Source: a virus (lineage: Duplodnaviria > Caudoviricetes). From it: 64,000 nucleotides of DNA. Below are positions 3,001 to 64,000 of this stretch, piece after piece; the stretch's first letter is position 1; every line of letters starts with the position of its first letter. Both the position numbers and the translations under genes were made by a program. Under the pieces are notes generated by a model that saw nothing but the letters and a program-made list of their open reading frames with translations, had not been told where the DNA came from and did not search any database. The DNA lies in IMG/VR virus record IMGVR_UViG_3300028591_000188, positions 1-64,000 of that record. The stretch is one strand, 5' to 3'.

Positions 3001-4725
3001 TATAAATCTTCACCTCATTTTATATTTAAATTTTCTTATGGAAATGTTCTTCCTATACTTAGTAATATATAGGAAATCCCAATATCTTCAACTTATAATA
3101 CTTTGTGGGGTGAAGAGACAATAAATAGTCCTGAACATCTTGATATAGAACCTGTTACTACAACAGGTACTAATTAGAGTTATTTGTGGATAGCTGATAT
3201 CTATAATCCAAAACAAGTAGGCAATACTTTATCAGATTTTAATTTACTTAATAGAGTATGGTTACCTTGTGGAGAAAGTAAGCCTTTAAATAGTGATGAA
3301 AAACTAGTTTGGTCAGAAGGAGATACTTTCTTCCAAAGATATGATTGCCTAAAGACTTATCCTTTCAGTACTGATGATTATCAATCAGTGGTTGAGATTG
3401 GTTCATTCATGCTTGAAACAAGAGTCAATCTTGATGGTAGATATGACACTAACAGAGGATTAATGGACAACACAACTGTAACAAAGGAAAACTTTAATCT
3501 AATCAATCCTGTATATAGCCAAATGAATAATTTCTTCTAGTATAAAATACTGGATGAAAGATTCAATAATAAGGAAACTGAATATAAGAATAGAATTACA
3601 TGGACTCTAGATAAATAGAATGGTGATGATGTTGACTAGTGGACCAGAGTAACTGAATTAGGAATTCTTGATTTGGATGGTGATAAAGGTAAAGTTACCA
3701 AGATTGAAAGATTTGATAATAACTTATATATCTTCCAAGACAAAGGTATTGCAAGATTAAACTATAATGACAATATCCAAATTCCAACTGAAGGCAACAT
3801 TCCTATTGAAGTGATTAATTCAGGATTTATCAATGGTAAGAGATATATCAGTGAAAATCAAGGACTTCAAGATAAATGGTGTAGCAAATCAACTCCTTAT
3901 GGAATATTCTTTAAAGATGGGTATTCAAAAGCTTTATATACAGTAAAGTATGATGAGCGTAGAAATCCTATTGTAGCACCATTATCTCAAGGTTCAATGT
4001 AGAAATGGACTGAATAGAATGTAGAGGACATTTATAAGGTTAACTATGATAACCAAGTAAACGAGGTATTGTTTATGATACAAAATAATCAGGACTATTC
4101 TACATTAGCATATTCTCCTTTGTATCAAGCATTTACTGCTTTCTATGATTATAAAGATTGGGTAGGTAATTATAATAATTCTACAATATCATTGTTAAAA
4201 ACTAATAGTTATCCTAATATATAGTATATTTACTTTGTTAGGAGAGCTGCTAATGATAATAAACCTATATTTAACTACTTCTATGACGAAGATGAAACAA
4301 AATCCTATTGGATTAAGTTTACTTCAGTAGTGGATAATTACGATTGCATATTTGATAATATATACTTGAAGAGTAATCTTTATGCTTATGATAAAAATAG
4401 TATGAATGATGAAGACATAGATATTACTTTAAAAGGAGATGATATTTATCAAGGAGATAGTGTTTTCCCATTTGATTCAATAGCAGTAAGCAATGATAAG
4501 CAAGCTTATGAATTAGAAGAAGACTCTTCAGATGTATGGAAAGAGTTCAAACCTATCAAGAAGTTTGGAGTCTGGAGAGGAAGGATTCCTAGGATAAATT
4601 CAATAAATGGAAAGTATTTAGGAAGTAGAATTAGAAATCATTGGACTAGAATAGGACTAAAGAAAAAAAGCCCTTCAACTGAAAAGACAGTAGTTAGGGA
4701 TATAAAAGTGGATGCTTTCTTCTAA
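1..4725 (+). CDS. crAss-like tail stabilisation protein (5' partial, >1574 aa; TAG=Gln)
   Basis: Frame 1 is open from base 1 to TAA 4723-4725 when TAG=Gln; track fragments 409, 1873, 2836, 3184, 3673 and 4330 all lie in it. Motifs YETELIQKVYWIDGINQPRVINI, CQGIVNPTVFN..QASWFFRP, GDTFFQRYDCLKTYP and KFGVWRGRIPR are typical of crAss stabilisation proteins. Confidence 0.9.
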
Positions 4726-21696: not shown

Positions 21697-24600
21697 TCAA
21701 CAGATATTTAATTTCTATAATAAATCCTATACTTTCTGATGTAAATCTTTTCTTTGGTCACTACTTGTATATGCAGGTTTATCCTTTATAATTTCATCTA
21801 TTTTAGAAAGGCAACCTTTTACGGTGTTTAATGTTTCTTTATTTATATTTCTTGTTTTTCTTAAGTCACTAAATACTCTTTTCAGTTTTCTGTCTTTTTC
21901 ATTTTGATATTCATCTTCAAGTGCTTTTAAAAGAGTGTCATCCCAATCATCACCATATAAGTCATAATTGACACTATTCATTAATTCCTCTTCATCAACT
22001 TCTTCAGTATCATCACTCGAAGACTCTTCATCTTCTAATTCATTATTGTCATAATTAAGATTTTCTATAGCCTATAACTGCTGATCAGTTAATTCATGAT
22101 CTTTTGCTGACTACATAAAAGCTGCATTCTCCTCAGCATTATATTCAAGGAAGTTATTAGCTATTCCTAATTCATTAGCTTTTATATATACAACATCGTC
22201 TCCTGTTTTTTCGTAGAAAATATATGGAGAGCCATTGTATAATATACCGAAATATTGTTTGAAGTTACTCTCATATACACTACTTGAAATCTCAATTGCT
22301 TTTACTTTTGTGCCTTTTGGATAAGTTGCAAGCTGTATATCTTTTTCTTTTATTCCACTATCTTCAACGTCTTCGTTTTTATTTTTCTTATCCTTCTTAT
22401 TTACCTTTACCCAGAAAGACCTTTCTTTTATGTTGTTTAAAGCAAATTGTGCAATGAAGTTATCTACTGTTTCCTCAAGCCATACATCTTTCTAAGTGAA
22501 TAAGTCTGAATATCCAAATATATCCATCTTTGCTCTATTTGGAGTTACACTCATAGCAGACCTTGGCATCCAAGAAAAACCAAATCTTGAAATCATATAT
22601 TCTATAAGTTTGGAGGAGAATGTTTTTCCTTCATTTGATGTTAATATAGATTCCCAGTCAGCAGCCATATCATCCCTATTTTCTCTACTTAATCCCTCAG
22701 AAAGTCTTACTGCCTGTATACGATTCTTTCTATTCATTGCATCTACATACATTCCCTAAGTTACGATATTATCTTTTAGCTATCCTTGTTTTGCTCTTAA
22801 GAACTATACTGGGAAGCCATAAAGTCTCTATATTCTTGATTGTAAATCAGCTTCCATTATAGGATATTCATATCCTTCCCTAGTTCTAGTCATTTCAAAT
22901 ACACAGAAAGCATTGTATAATTTTTTAATGAAGTCAGCATTTAAACGAATATTCTTTTCACTTAGCTTATCTAATACTTTTCTAAAATTAATTTGATATA
23001 ATGGTGAGAATCTACAAGCCTATTCACATAATCCAGGATTTCCATCAACTTCTGTATATACATTAGCAAGAGTCTTTAGGAAAGGAACTTGTTTTGCAAG
23101 CTAAAGAATATCTGTATCAAATAAAGAATCCTCTGTTTCCTACAAGAACTGTTTTATCTTATATTCCATTTCTATTGTATCATATACTGTAGGACCAACA
23201 GCATTCTTTGTTGAGTTAAGTGAAGTAAGACTATTTATATCAGAAATTGCTTTACAATAATCAGATATATTCAATAGGAATGTAAGTACAGCCAAATCTA
23301 AATCATCATCTGTAGTTCTTCCTTTTATTACATCTAACATATCTGATTCTCTAATAGTACTTTCTTGAAGTATTCTGCTAGCTTTTTCAGAGTCTGTATT
23401 TTCTGTGATTTCATTATAAATCAAACCTAAGGCTCTTTCAAATCTTATTCCATACACTTGTGACATCTTCATTGCTCTCTGTGCAGAAGGCATAGATAAC
23501 ATATAAGCAATTGTTCTTGGAGAAAAACCTATTCTCATCATACCCATTGCTATTGTACCAGTAGTAGGATTAATGTTGATTGAACCTAAAACTGCCTCTT
23601 TAGCATTATCAGCAGATGCTCCCACAAACATACCAATTGTTCTTGAAAGTCTTTCTCCGTCAACAGGTGAATATTCTGGGTCAATTCTTACTTTTCCTTT
23701 ACTATTTTCATTTATGGTTGTTTTATCTATAAACGTTTCATTAGTAATTTTGTTTCCGTTTGAATCTTCTATAGTAAAGTCAAAATCAAATCCTCTGTTA
23801 TCTCCACCAGGTTCTCTAAAATGAATATTAGCAAAAGCTGTAACTGAGTGAGACACATTGTTAAGAGCAGCAATACCCACAAACTCCTTACCAGCCGCAT
23901 TAGCTTTATGTAGTTTTACTTGTGTCTGTACATACATAAGACTTTCATTACCTTCTTTATAATGGTCATCCAGTTCTTTAGCTATATCAACCAAAGGTCC
24001 GAAACTTCCAGGGTGCAACTGTTTCTCAATACAAGACGGGTCTCCAAGAGCTTCCCACATCATATCAAATATTTCATTCTTAATTGTCATTCTATCAGCT
24101 CTTGCATTTTCTTGCTTCTTCCTTAGTTTCATAGCAGCATCAGTAGAATACCTGAACATACAATACATTTTATCAATATCATAGTCAGTACCACTAAGTA
24201 AAGTAATTTCCTTAGGCATTATAATCTATTCTCCTGCTTCTCTAGGTAAGAATCCCTTAATCTTCATTCTATATGAAGAATATTTATCCTCAGTAGGAAT
24301 TCTATATCCGATCATTTCCAAATCTTTATCAGTTAAAATGCCAAGAGCTTTAATATCTTCAATATCAAGAATTTCTCCTTCTGCATATTTTCTTGATAAT
24401 TTCTTTCTTCCCATCTTTCCATGATTATACATTATTGCTCTTTGAATTTCTCTTGTAGGAGCAGTAATATATACTTCCATAGTCATACCACTTACTATTT
24501 TATCTCCTTTTACTAAGGTACCAACATCTATTATCTTTCCTTCATTATTTATGAGATGTAACTCTTCAGACATTCCATAAGGAGCGACTTGAACAACAGG

Positions 24601-56599: not shown

Positions 56600-57688
56600 T
56601 TAATTGTTATTTAATGTTTCCAATCTCTTAAGAATACTGTCATATGTTTGTTCCCTAGTAAGATGTGTTTCAATAATTGTATATTTATCAACATCTTCAT
56701 TATTAATTTCTCCTTCATAAGTTAATTGCTTAAGATAAGCAACATCATTATATAAAGGACATTCAGGTTCAATAACATCCCCATTTTCATCAAAATCAAC
56801 TAATGCTATAGGGAAGTATTCACAAGTTCTCATCTTTCCGTAATTATCCTCTGGAGGAACAGAACAAATATTTGCTGGATTTACAAGAACCTGTAACCCT
56901 ACATCTCCAAAATAGTTTCTCTTAAGCCAACCTGCTGAAGCACAGTGCAATCCAAAAGAGCACGTTACATTTTGGTCACAGTCAACTTCACTTCTAGGCA
57001 TACTTACAGGTTGTCCTAACTTAATTATAGTGGAATGACTATGTTGGTCAGTATATGTAGGAGAGTTTGCTCCTTTATTAACAATGTCATCATATATTTC
57101 TCCCAAAGACATTTCGTTAATTCCTCCATCTATTTCATAGGGATTCTTACCTTCTACATACTTTGCTTGATAATAGGAATTAATTATATTCTTAACCTCT
57201 TTAGTACTATACCCTGATTCTTCCTTAATGTCTGCATTTCTATATGCAACAACAAGACCAGCTTCAGTAATCTTCATATTCCACTTTCTGATAAACCAGA
57301 ATAAATTATTCCTTACCCTAGAGTCAGGATTCAATGAAACTAAAGTCCAGAAATTCTTAAACTTCTTAATTTCAGCTTCATTATCTTCTTCTTCTGCTTC
57401 AAGAATCTTCTCAACAAAGTCACTTGGAATGCTTTGTTCAGAAATATCCAACATATACACAGAGTTTCCTCTTAATGTAAGGATGTTTGAATGTTGTACC
57501 CTATCAGCTATAAGCTTTCCTTCTACTTCTTCCTTAGGAAGGAATTTTCTTTTTACAATTTCCTCATTGTCCTGATTAACAATAAGGAAATCCCATAATT
57601 CACCATCACAATCTGTAATTATTTGGGTACCATCTGAGAACACTAATTGTAGTGTCCCATCTTTACAAAATGCTTTAAAATTACTCAT
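56600..57688 (-). CDS. rIIB: rIIB-like protein
   Basis: VAYRN, GQPVSMPRSEVDCD..CSFGLH and VLVNPANICSVP..GKMRTCEY; adjacent to rIIA. Confidence 0.85.
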   Translation of the reverse strand: MSNFKAFCKDGTLQLVFSDGTQIITDCDGELWDFLIVNQDNEEIVKRKFLPKEEVEGKLIADRVQHSNILTLRGNSVYMLDISEQSIPSDFVEKILEAEEEDNEAEIKKFKNFWTLVSLNPDSRVRNNLFWFIRKWNMKITEAGLVVAYRNADIKEESGYSTKEVKNIINSYYQAKYVEGKNPYEIDGGINEMSLGEIYDDIVNKGANSPTYTDQHSHSTIIKLGQPVSMPRSEVDCDQNVTCSFGLHCASAGWLKRNYFGDVGLQVLVNPANICSVPPEDNYGKMRTCEYFPIALVDFDENGDVIEPECPLYNDVAYLKQLTYEGEINNEDVDKYTIIETHLTREQTYDSILKRLETLNNN

Positions 57689-59453
57689 TGTTTTCTCTAT
57701 TTAAGTTTGGTAATTGTTTTAAATCTAATCCTATTCTTGGGTGTCTACCCATCTTTTTATACACAAACCTTTGTGTATATTCCTTACAATGTTTCTTGGC
57801 GGAATTCCAGAAATTATAAACCTTAAGTTCGTCTTCAGTTAATTTGAAATACTCGATATCTTGAGTGTTAACAAGTCCTTTACTTTCAAAGTCTTTTACT
57901 AATCCTTTAAACCAAGAAGATGCATTAGCTATTACAGTGAGACAGCCTTTGTATTTGTTTTTAAACTCCTGAACTAAAGGAATAAAACCATCATTATCAT
58001 AATAGTAGTTTAGGTTAAGGCCTTGTCCTATCATATTTGTATAGATAATATAAGCAGTAGCTAATTTCTTTAGAATGCTTCTCTTCATAAAATCTTCCAA
58101 CTTGACAAACTTCTTATTTCCTTCAAGAAATACAGCTTCTTCTTTCTTCACTGTAATTAAAGCTTGTATACAAGGAATATATTCAGTAATTCCAGAGAGA
58201 TTCCTAAGCATATCATCTTCCTTAGTGTTATAGGTATATACTACTATTCCTCTTTCTTTTAGATAAGGTGATAAATCTTTATTATTGAAATAACTGTTAT
58301 ACCTATATACCCTATAAGACATCTTTTTTATACTATCTGCCGATACTCTTTTCTTCTTTTTATCTCCCTTAAAATAATCTATATAGGAATCTGGAACATC
58401 ATCATTACCTATGCTTGTTATGTTTAAGTTATCTATCAAGAAATTTATACAATCGGAATAATCATAGTTCGCATTTTTACAATAATTACTTATTGCATGC
58501 TTTAATGCATCAGCTCCACAAAAGTTCAAAATTACTGCTTTACCATTTGTTGTTCCTGCAATATAAGATTTTGTTATGTTTTTAAATGTCTTATCTGCTT
58601 TTTCATACAACTTTATTTCTCCTGCTATAAAGTTCTTTAAATATAGTCTCCTTACTTCATATGAACTTAAGTTTTTATTCATATATATGTCTGTTCTAGG
58701 AATAGACATATAATATATTTCACGTAAAAATCTTGCAAACCTGATAGGAATTGTATTACCGTTTATTCTTATCCGTGTATAATCCAATGAAACATCAGAA
58801 TAATTAATATTTAAATCATTATCTATTCTACAACTTGAATCATCCACAAGTTTTAAATAGAAATCTTTTAATGTAAAATCCTCAGATAAAGCAGAAGTAA
58901 CAATTTCTTGTAATTCATCTTTAACTAAACCAAGTCTTTCATTGACTACTTTTTTAGTTCTGTCATTAAACTGGAGAGCTTCTCTATTTGGAATAATATC
59001 TACACTTCCTATTGGTAAATCAATAATTAATCCATGAGTCTGAAATTTAGATGTAATTAATCGTTCATTATCAGTATATAATACTTTTCCTAAACTAAAA
59101 TAACAATAATAATTGTGAAGATTACAAGTTTTAAAGTTTTTATATTCCGTTACTTTTCTTTCATTAAACTCTTTTACTCTATTTATTATAGAGTAGTTTC
59201 TACCAAAATACTCCACATATAACTTATCAAATAAGCATAGTGTTTTTATTGCATCTGTGAGTTCACTGTCACTATATATCCTCATTTTTATGGAAACTTC
59301 CAAACCATTCTTGAAGTCTCCTTCTGTAACAGATAACCTATCTATGTTTATACCATTTCCATTTTTATACATTACATAGGAATATTTCTTTCCTTCATAA
59401 TAAGAAGTTATGTTTGCTACATTAGTGCAAGCTAAGCAACTAAATCGACCAAT
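57681..59453 (-). CDS. rIIA: rIIA-like protein, exon 2
   Basis: Starts IGRFS, completing the GHKL motif GMFG|IGRFS; GSVDIIPNREALQF. Confidence 0.85.
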   Translation of the reverse strand: MGRFSCLACTNVANITSYYEGKKYSYVMYKNGNGINIDRLSVTEGDFKNGLEVSIKMRIYSDSELTDAIKTLCLFDKLYVEYFGRNYSIINRVKEFNERKVTEYKNFKTCNLHNYYCYFSLGKVLYTDNERLITSKFQTHGLIIDLPIGSVDIIPNREALQFNDRTKKVVNERLGLVKDELQEIVTSALSEDFTLKDFYLKLVDDSSCRIDNDLNINYSDVSLDYTRIRINGNTIPIRFARFLREIYYMSIPRTDIYMNKNLSSYEVRRLYLKNFIAGEIKLYEKADKTFKNITKSYIAGTTNGKAVILNFCGADALKHAISNYCKNANYDYSDCINFLIDNLNITSIGNDDVPDSYIDYFKGDKKKKRVSADSIKKMSYRVYRYNSYFNNKDLSPYLKERGIVVYTYNTKEDDMLRNLSGITEYIPCIQALITVKKEEAVFLEGNKKFVKLEDFMKRSILKKLATAYIIYTNMIGQGLNLNYYYDNDGFIPLVQEFKNKYKGCLTVIANASSWFKGLVKDFESKGLVNTQDIEYFKLTEDELKVYNFWNSAKKHCKEYTQRFVYKKMGRHPRIGLDLKQLPNLNRENNE

Positions 59454-59692
59454 CATTTGTTATCTTAAAGGCTTTTTATCCTTTAATTCTTGTAGTTTCC
59501 TACAAGTTCAGCATATCTTTTCATTGTTTATACAATGTCCCTGCCTCTTGTGGAGATTATATCTTTTCACTCCATATGCGTTGCGGCTGGTTTATCTTAG
59601 ATAAACCTTCACCTCTGATTACCATATCTTTCGACTTAGGCTTCCAGATTTTTTCAGGGATTTTAGTTCGGCAATGGTCATAATTTTTATTT
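59454..59692 (-). mobile_element. ORF-less group I intron (239 nt) in rIIA
   Basis: 5' exon GUUCGGU pairs with IGS GCCGAAC, with U-G at the splice site. P3 UCCCUG/CAGGGA; P4 UCUG/CAGA; P7 GCAUA/UAUGC; S-like AAGAUAUGC; terminal G at 59454. Splicing restores the frame and GxFGIG. Confidence 0.9.
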
Positions 59693-60055
59693 ACCGAACA
59701 TTCCTATGAAGTCATTACTATCTCTTTTAGTTGAGCTTCCTATGTTTTTATATATCCTCTCAAATCTTTCAGGACTTATTCCTGTACCATAATCCCTAAT
59801 TGATATTCTATAGTTATAAATCTCATCAGCGTCTTCAATCAACAATAATATAGGCTCTTCTGTACCAGCTTCTATATGGGAATCATAAGCATTTGATACG
59901 GTTTCCCTAAGGAAGGATTCCAATGGCTTGGAATATAAGTTTGAAGTCAACAGTGTAGCAAGAAAGTTAATATTCTCCTTATCTATACCTACCCTATTTT
60001 CCTCAATATTTCCTATATAAGAAGCTTCGTGACTTTCTTCTGTATTTACTATCAT
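59693..60055 (-). CDS. rIIA: rIIA-like protein, exon 1 (GHKL ATPase N-terminus)
   Basis: LYSKPLESFLRETVSNAYDS, IRDYGTG and SSTKRDSNDFIGMFG; likely start MIVNT at 60055; spliced product 711 aa. Confidence 0.88.
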
Positions 60056-62690: not shown

Positions 62691-63032
62691 TTAAATGGCA
62701 TAATATTTTCTGATTGTATCATCTACAAGTTTAAGACTATTAGGAATTTCAAACTTATCGAACATTCCAATAGGAGTCTTTGCAGATGAATGGTTTGCTT
62801 TTGTTTGGAAATAATATCTATTATCTCCTTCATCACCATAATCCACTCTAGTCATAAAGACTATCGGATAGAATCCTTCTGGCTGTACTTTGGTTAGCTT
62901 TTTTCCAATAACACTGAAAACCATTTTTTCAGTGCCGTCTGATTGGGTTTGAAGCATTGTGTGACCCATAACATATACTATTTGGTCATTTCTTAGATTG
63001 TTACAAATTGAATTAAGTTCAATTACATCATT
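62691..63032 (-). CDS. AAA_24/Sak4-like P-loop ATPase, 3' exon (5' exon outside window)
   Basis: NDVIELNSIC..VYVMGHT..GKKL..PEGFYPIVF..FQTKANHSSAKTPIGMF..IPNSL; lacks a Walker A motif, so it is incomplete; begins right after the intron terminal G. Confidence 0.75.
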   Translation of the reverse strand, partial: NDVIELNSICNNLRNDQIVYVMGHTMLQTQSDGTEKMVFSVIGKKLTKVQPEGFYPIVFMTRVDYGDEGDNRYYFQTKANHSSAKTPIGMFDKFEIPNSLKLVDDTIRKYYAI

Positions 63033-64000
63033 CGTTTTGTTACATACAAGCTCTTTATCTTGTACTCTCCTTCTTTCAAAGGAGTATCGGACTATATCAT
63101 CACTTTGTATCTCTACAAAGGCAGGGCACTCTTGTCTGATTTATTGTTTAAGCTACTCATCAGTTAGTCTCTGAACCTTCTACATACTTTTATGCTTTTC
63201 TGTAGCTTGGCTGCTGATTGGCATAGATAGCAAATCCTTAGCTTTCCAGCAATTCACCCTGTTTATTGTGGCCAATGATTTTATAATTCATTTCAGGACA
63301 TACAAATTCTTTTATAATATCTACAAACTTGTTATAGTCTTTTTGTATTAAATACAATATTTCTTTATCTTTATTTTTATGTATATGTACAGTAAGACCA
63401 AAATTCTTAATCATCATATCTTGTAATTTAAGTTGACTATTATGATTAAAACCGTTTGTACTAAAGTAAGCTCCTGTTGGATGATGTATTGCTCCATCAT
63501 CCATATACCATATAGCTAATCCTATAGGACCTAATTCATATATAGTATCTGGAACTTCTTTCTTGGGATTATACCAATCTTCTCTATATTTATTAAAAGA
63601 TTGGTTTACTTTGGTAACTATTTGACAATATCCATTGTCTTTAATAATTCTTCCATTTATTATTCCGTTTCTGTAAGAATTTGTACGTTCACTATACTTA
63701 ACGTGAAGTCCACTTTGTTCAAACAGTTTATACTTATGTAATACATATTGTTTTTGAACTAGACTGTGCCTTACTACCAAAATACAATTTGTTCTCTTTC
63801 TTATTATAGAACCATCTCCTAACATTGAACCTAAAATAAGTTGATTTGCCATAGGAGATATTTCTATAGGAGGTTGAGTACATAATATTTTGTTTCTTAA
63901 GGCAAGTTTCTCTGAAAAAGAGAAAGTTTTAATATTTTCTCTTTCAATAAAATCTCTCATATCTTTGAGAGGTTCATTAAACATTGTAGATAAATTACAA
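63033..64000 (-). mobile_element. Group I (IA-like) intron with homing endonuclease, 5' end outside window
   Basis: P AATTGCTGGAAA (63243-54), Q AATCAGCAG (63211-19), R GTTCAGAGACTA (63165-76), S GATATAGTCC (63089-98), P3 CAGGGT/GCCCTG, and 3' end ..TAACAAAACG. Confidence 0.92.
63238..63984 (-). CDS. LAGLIDADG homing endonuclease (two-motif type)
   Basis: ILGSMLGDGSI and LAIWYMDDG; the frame stays open to the window edge, so the true start may be upstream. Confidence 0.92.
   Translation of the reverse strand: MFNEPLKDMRDFIERENIKTFSFSEKLALRNKILCTQPPIEISPMANQLILGSMLGDGSIIRKRTNCILVVRHSLVQKQYVLHKYKLFEQSGLHVKYSERTNSYRNGIINGRIIKDNGYCQIVTKVNQSFNKYREDWYNPKKEVPDTIYELGPIGLAIWYMDDGAIHHPTGAYFSTNGFNHNSQLKLQDMMIKNFGLTVHIHKNKDKEILYLIQKDYNKFVDIIKEFVCPEMNYKIIGHNKQGELLES

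Follow-up and report, generated by a model that had tools for sequence, protein, structure and literature searches.

The introns of the phage T4 genes td, nrdB and nrdD (IA2) are of the IA type, interrupt conserved enzyme codons and vary in their presence among relatives. An intron sharing these traits is described here, located in a rIIA-like gene on the minus strand of a 64,000-nt stretch of viral DNA (IMG/VR record IMGVR_UViG_3300028591_000188, positions 1 to 64,000), which was analysed as a whole and is referred to below as the window. The T4 introns differ from it by possessing P2, a canonical P7 and, mostly, endonuclease genes. We know of no intron in rIIA of T4 itself. [quoted passage not shown] 2021, PMC7886860). 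As these were found via endonuclease protein domains, ORF-less introns such as the present one would escape that survey, and rIIA is absent from the main text of the study. A split rIIA gene is found in crAssphage cr116_1 (NC_055882.1, L027; Steigviridae, Pamirivirus faecium), for which RefSeq gives the order 126-aa "RIIA lysis inhibitor", "intron-encoded endonuclease", rest of rIIA and rIIB, the split region extending over approximately positions 483-1490.

With regard to the ribozyme itself, the system to compare is the terL intron of Lactobacillus delbrueckii phage JCL1032, which is annotated as a joined CDS. The JCL1032 introns were proven to self-splice (Riipinen and Alatossava 2004, as related in PMC6669764). 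Look-alikes of the terL intron were found in phages of Staphylococcus, Clostridium, Clostridioides and Arcanobacterium, where the interrupted genes include those for the tape measure and the terminase. This type shares with the window intron a P1, the absence of P2, helices P3-P6, a P7 followed directly by P7.1, P8, a P9 with GNRA loop, a P9.1 whose loop reads AUAAAAAG, and a GAUAACA..UG tail. The JCL1032 and window introns have the identical P7 GCAUA/UAUGC, both are compact and ORF-less (226 nt in JCL1032, 239 nt in the window), and neither is detected by the Rfam model RF00028; the 3' modules of the JCL1032 type are 79-90% identical to that of the window intron. Differences concern the host phage (Firmicutes phages for the JCL1032 type, a crAss-like phage of Bacteroidota-type hosts for the window), the host gene (terL or tape-measure gene versus rIIA) and the P4-P6 sequence: P5 of the window intron contains an 11-nt GAAA receptor matched by a GAAA loop L9, whereas JCL1032 has a GCGA loop and no receptor.

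The window intron separates codons G121 and I122 of a 711-aa rIIA-like GHKL ATPase (Table 1). Exon 1 ends with ...AUG UUC GGU at position 59693, exon 2 starts with AUU GGU CGA at 59453, and the 3' terminal base of the intron is G59454. The two exon ORFs align with successive portions of a single RIIA profile (positions 1-116 for exon 1), and the intact allele gives a single RIIA match over positions 1-640 of PHROG 612 (E 7.6e-49) as well as a HATPase_c_3 match at residues 46-147 (E 2e-9) which spans the 121/122 junction. The start codon of exon 1 is the one used in intact 711-aa alleles. An earlier note, made from the letters of this DNA, had claimed that the ATP-lid motif of the GHKL domain is interrupted; indeed the split lies inside GxxGxG (the G2 box), and GMFG/IG is rebuilt by removal of the intron. 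The rIIB orthologue in relatives matches Pfam Phage_T4_rIIB. The adjacent primase is 49% identical to the primases of the Bacteroides phages Kehishuvirus and PhiCrAssBcn, which assigns the window to the crAss-like phages, the source being a gut or rumen phage. The full record comprises 72 kb and is estimated to be 56% complete. None of the papers searched describes an intron in rIIA.

Table 1. Coordinates of the split rIIA gene, its intron and the ribozyme elements in the window.
Feature	Positions	Strand	Remarks
rIIA exon 1, 121 codons, MIVNTEE...IGMFG	59693..60055	(-)	GHKL N box and G1 box; PHROG 612, Pfam HATPase_c
Group I intron without ORF	59454..59692	(-)	239 nt; absent from L004, L022, L023
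P1, exon GUUCGGU (59699-59693) / guide GCCGAAC (59672-59666)	59666..59699	(-)	7 bp; U.G at 5' splice site
P3 5' strand UCCCUG, partner CAGGGA (59543-59538)	59655..59660	(-)	Pseudoknot with P7
P4 (UCUGG/UCAGA) around P5	59614..59648	(-)	P5 tip GAAA-capped; pairs located in the sequence
P6 (GG/CC) and P6a (GGUUUAUC/GAUAAACC)	59585..59613	(-)	Two P6a pairs change on both sides in the lineage
P7 5' strand GCAUA, partner UAUGC (59515-59511)	59575..59579	(-)	Covariation and R1
P7.1 hairpin UGGAG/CUCCA, between P7 and P3'	59551..59574	(-)	5/5 pairs covary in the lineage
P8 hairpin CAUUGU/ACAAUG	59522..59537	(-)	One pair changed on both sides, in L026
P9 hairpin CUUGUAG/CUACAAG, GAAA tetraloop (59499-59496)	59489..59506	(-)	Class alignment, R1
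P9.1 hairpin UUAAAGG/CCUUUAA, loop AUAAAAAG	59465..59486	(-)	Loop conserved in the class; 6/7 pairs covary across the class
3' tail GAUAACAAAUG with terminal G (59454)	59454..59464	(-)	Conserved; R1 match and lineage alignment
P10 exon-2 strand UGGUC, partner GACCA in L1	59447..59451	(-)	29/30 cells paired across relatives
rIIA exon 2, 590 codons plus stop, IGRFSCLAC...	57681..59453	(-)	PHROG 612 positions 121-631
rIIB-like gene	56600..57688	(-)	PHROG 609 and other RIIB families; overlaps rIIA stop by 8 nt

Four relatives of exon 2 were found in IMG/VR; three contain the intron, while precisely these 239 nt are missing from L004 (IMGVR_UViG_3300037455_000435; 87% identical), where the sequence is ...ATG TTT GGA ATT GGT..., that is MFGIG. 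The same precise absence was observed in L023 (92% identical; protein IGMFGIGRFS) and in contig L022. The search for intron-less alleles that the earlier note had suggested was thus successful, and its prediction that removal of the 239 nt joins IGMFG to IGRFS in frame is seen realised in nature. Among approximately 38 close rIIA protein clusters (69-100% identical), 8 are intact (681-714 aa) and about 30 are split; the latter begin either with MIGRFS (591 aa) or with the following methionine (563 aa), i.e. at or just after the junction. The approximately 80 distant homologues (37-41% identical) are all intact.

Contig L022 (JGI 3300024345, Ga0255062_10000697, 8469 nt) is 100.000% identical to the window from 63032 to 59693 and continues without a mismatch from 59453 to 55561. 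Only positions 59454-59692 are missing, which leaves the junction TTCGGT/ATTGGT, and the identity around the site amounts to about 7.2 kb in total. This contig is either a spliced transcript from a metatranscriptome or a DNA variant from a mixed population that is almost identical but intron-less, and under either reading it confirms the boundaries of the intron. Position 1 of L022 corresponds to window position 63032, where the exon resumes directly past the terminal G (63033) of a second intron described below. Such a start is consistent with an assembly that broke off at a splice junction, owing either to spliced versus unspliced RNA or by intron-plus versus intron-minus DNA. If L022 were indeed a spliced transcript, it would provide direct evidence of in vivo splicing in an uncultured phage.

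The secondary structure was derived from the sequence and compared among relatives. P1, P10, P3, P4 and the terminal G, all named by the earlier note, are found on the minus strand at the positions listed in Table 1. The U.G pair at the 5' splice site is formed by U59693 and G59672, and L1 (59692-59673) contains the P10 strand GACCA (59679-59675). P1 is identical in 5/5 relatives having it; in L024, an endonuclease-bearing copy, there is one mismatch between guide and exon. RNAfold recovered most helices unaided, with z = -4.97 relative to 200 shuffled sequences. In an alignment of the rIIA lineage, consisting of the window intron, L005, L006, L025, L026 and the core of L024 and scored for the full structure including pseudoknot and P10, 99.7% of 399 cells pair; pairing falls to 32-41% when the partners are slid. 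Nine pairs change on both sides, namely five in P7.1, two in P6a, one in P8 and the second pair of P7, which is C-G in the window intron and U-A in L025 and L026. As P1, P3, P4, P5, P9 and P9.1 are invariant in this shallow set of six sequences, they gain no covariation support from it. Outside the lineage, P3 has different yet complementary sequences in JCL1032, L015, L017, L012 and L002, and the same holds for P4 of class members, both according to comparison by eye. P5 reads as a canonical 11-nt GAAA-tetraloop receptor, CCUAAG (59640-59635) ... UAUGG (59626-59622). Together with the GAAA loop of P9, this suggests a tertiary contact in which L9 probably docks into P5.

BLASTN of the intron against phage genomes returned 234 records at E <= 1, which mostly match the 3' module (P7'-P9-P9.1-tail). 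Among the best matches are sequences of Staphylococcus, Clostridium, Clostridioides, Arcanobacterium and Lactobacillus phages, with an identity of 80-90% over the 3' 67 nt. Most of the matched records that were opened have no intron annotated at this place, and some show spurious small ORFs across the site. From the 3' cores (J6/7 to terminal G) of ten other phage introns, including JCL1032 terL and none from the window lineage, we constructed a covariance model, designated R1. Over P7, P7.1, P9 and P9.1 of its alignment, 100% of 238 cells pair and 15/24 pairs change on both sides, as compared to pairing of 24-51% with slid partners; each of these four helices gains covariation support across the class, and for P7.1, 4/5 pairs covary. 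R1 matched the window intron over its full length (1-144) with 115 bits (E 6.4e-24) and no non-standard pair, which places the intron in this class. No relative or class member has lost the terminal G. In a scan of the window with R1, two introns were detected, all other matches (<= 13.4 bits, E >= 0.37) being taken as noise; the whole 72-kb record likewise contains only these two. Among these, the weak match at 22041-22167 (-), with 13.4 bits, E 0.37 and several unpaired positions, is probably noise.

The earlier note had regarded P7 as a non-canonical variant, GCAUA/UAUGC in place of GACUA/UAGUC, which keeps the G-C pair for guanosine binding. Both this helix and the pair are present, G59579-C59511 being the proposed guanosine-binding pair, but the helix is not an oddity of the window intron; it is the norm of the class, which is widespread in phages. 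In 10/10 sampled members P7 consists of G-C, C-G, A-U or G-C, U-A and A-U; the first pair is an invariant G-C, found also in 6/6 lineage members, the second is C-G, and the third is either A-U or G-C. The rIIA intron is an ordinary addition to an intron class already known from phages.

The note had further proposed a search with group I covariance models. This search gave a divided answer: Rfam RF00028 reported nothing in the intron region even at E <= 10, whereas R1 yielded the score given above. Rfam also returned no group I match for the region together with three related loci, RF00028 missed the JCL1032 intron at E <= 1, and every tested copy of the class with P7 = GCAUA escaped RF00028. 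The silence of RF00028 was rejected as evidence against the intron, since the related JCL1032 intron is missed too. This failure, together with published accounts that the single Rfam group I model does not capture the diversity of these introns and may fail on phage introns (PMC6125680, PMC11878797), indicates a limit of the model rather than a defining feature of the intron.

Two further introns of the class were observed in L002 (MT835481.1, an unannotated human-gut phage), apparently in its large terminase gene at approximately 2440-2698 and 3460-4590, the second with an inserted ORF that follows P3'. Among outside relatives, the 5' half of the window intron comes nearest to the P3-P6 half of these two. 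In the first of them no convincing P1 was recognised, and its 5' splice site was left out.

The proposal of a compact ORF-less group I intron interrupting rIIA is borne out by an independent model and by its precise absence in relatives. Extra hairpins between P7 and P3', such as P7.1, are a mark of IA-type introns. Segment 59454-59692 (-) is very probably an intact IA-type group I ribozyme, with P7.1 and without P2, whose catalytic activity is presumed from its fold.

The 239 nt of the window copy, in which L1 measures 20 nt, contain no endonuclease gene or other ORF. L024 shows a different state: its ribozyme core, scoring 118 bits with R1, is the same, and a 269-aa LAGLIDADG_3 ORF is inserted in L1, flanked on one side by the conserved AAAUAAAAAU with which L1 begins at its 5' end and on the other by the P10-forming GACCAUU. 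A TATCTTTGCA motif resembling a Bacteroidota-type promoter element is located just upstream of this ORF and within L1 (L024:330-390). Together with the intron-less alleles, the locus is thus found in three allelic states. Judged by their sequences, the empty site, the ORF-less intron and the endonuclease-bearing intron represent the classical states of a homing cycle within one clade, of which the window intron would be one. The alignment around the site revealed no clear pattern of co-conversion tracts.

The intron would be transcribed as part of the rIIA pre-mRNA and fold into P1 and P3-P9.1. Guanosine would be bound at the P7 G-C pair and cleavage would occur after the U of the P1 U.G pair; P10 would then align exon 2 for ligation of the exons. 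The product would be the continuous 711-aa rIIA-like GHKL ATPase with its GxxGxG lid rebuilt across the junction. A UAA two codons into the intron would halt ribosomes ahead of the ribozyme core. We infer these steps from the established chemistry of the group I family, the structural prerequisites of which are present here.

The early stop codon also gives circumstantial ground for the idea, raised in the earlier note, that splicing might act as a regulatory gate, so that rIIA and a putative counter-defence activity are made only when splicing is permitted. The reading frame of exon 1 runs through the 5' splice site into AAA UAA, giving ...NDFIGMFG-K-stop, so that unspliced RNA would yield a 123-aa fragment, and with the intron located in the ATP-lid motif no activity is expected without splicing. 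However, targeting of conserved motifs and early in-frame stops are generic to phage group I introns. Moreover, close relatives live without the intron, hence no obligatory regulatory role is evident, and the intron has no riboswitch-like or protein-binding add-on. A gating function is speculative and, in our judgement, improbable, and we prefer to consider the intron as a self-splicing element in a state of the homing cycle.

Still less probable, to a degree that makes it a very unlikely explanation, is that the intron is a decayed, splicing-dead remnant, leaving rIIA either a pseudogene or a pair of polypeptides of which the second is translated from an AUG at the intron end. Gene callers do report two ORFs and start exon 2 as M-IGRFSCLAC from 59456 onward, the AUG being the last three bases of the intron; the 591-aa MIGRFS form recurs in databases, and a copy without an endonuclease gene agrees with the degenerating stage of homing. 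However, all core helices are intact and kept by compensatory changes, and the division cuts a single domain midway through its GxxGxG motif. Both exons are open and 69-100% identical across the approximately 30 split alleles. Since the tail reads ...AAUUG in L024, L025 and L026 as compared to ...AAAUG in the window intron, the AUG is an accident of the window copy and not a conserved start. The reading of the segment as a spacer that separates two independent genes and is structured by chance, for which the silent Rfam model speaks, is already refuted by the E value of the independent R1 model, by the restoration of one RIIA protein where relatives precisely lack the segment, and by the covariation of the fold.

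With the self-splicing intron as the preferred reading, the comparison with cr116_1 concerns the insertion site. In both phages an intron interrupts the same rIIA GxxGxG motif, with rIIB as the next gene. According to our reading of the sequence, the cr116_1 insertion lies 5 nt upstream, after GGG U inside a Phe codon, as compared to after UUC GGU in the window. The ribozyme of cr116_1 is different, with the canonical P7 GACUA/UAGUC, no match to P9.1, and a score of 80.8 bits with RF00028 but only 28.6 bits with R1; it also carries an ORF, which the window copy does not. The LAGLIDADG protein of cr116_1 is homologous to the endonuclease of L024 (30% identity, E 3e-13). Homologous LAGLIDADG genes thus sit in L1 of two unrelated ribozyme scaffolds whose insertions are 5 nt apart, and these GxxGxG codons in rIIA of crAss-like phages may serve repeatedly as a landing site. 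That such a landing site exists and that L022 is a natural spliced transcript is a joint proposition which we offer tentatively and hold with rather more reserve than confidence.

Like the crAss-like phages with group I introns in core genes, the window has a further one, in the ATPase gene neighbouring rIIA. This second intron (63033-64000 (-)) extends past the window (L028), encodes a LAGLIDADG_2 endonuclease (63241-63984) and scores 80.8 bits with Rfam over 63067-63326, its P7 being the canonical GACUA/UAGUC. R1 detected it with 65 bits and the same architecture as the rIIA intron, including P9.1, the UAACAAAACG tail and the terminal G at 63033. The protein encoded by 63241-63984 has no significant similarity to the L024 endonuclease, and therefore there is no indication that it acts in trans to mobilise the rIIA intron. 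In L004, where rIIA is intron-less, rIIB contains a 1230-nt intron of the same class (L004:5114-6343; R1 131.7 bits; P7 GCGUA/UACGC). An ORF of this intron resembles a GIY-YIG endonuclease by its motifs, and the rIIB exons join as ...AVP/TIDEYGKMRTCEYFP, in frame with rIIB of the window.

The rIIA gene had been considered an unusual intron host in the earlier note. This view does not hold, because rIIA is split in cr116_1 too and the L004 relative has an intron in rIIB; the rII genes are repeated intron targets in this phage group. The finding discloses neither a new mechanism nor a connection of splicing with anti-defence, and its main value lies in annotation and in better detection of introns. 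As to annotation, the two rIIA ORFs of the window and the approximately 30 database clusters of N-terminally truncated rIIA represent halves of one 711-aa protein. As to detection, there is a gap, in that the one group I model of Rfam misses the tested GCAUA copies which the small R1 model finds cleanly. For the biology of these introns, one site in one phage clade provides a compact example of the homing cycle, and the rIIA landing site, if real, would exemplify in nature the transfer of an endonuclease from one intron scaffold to another.
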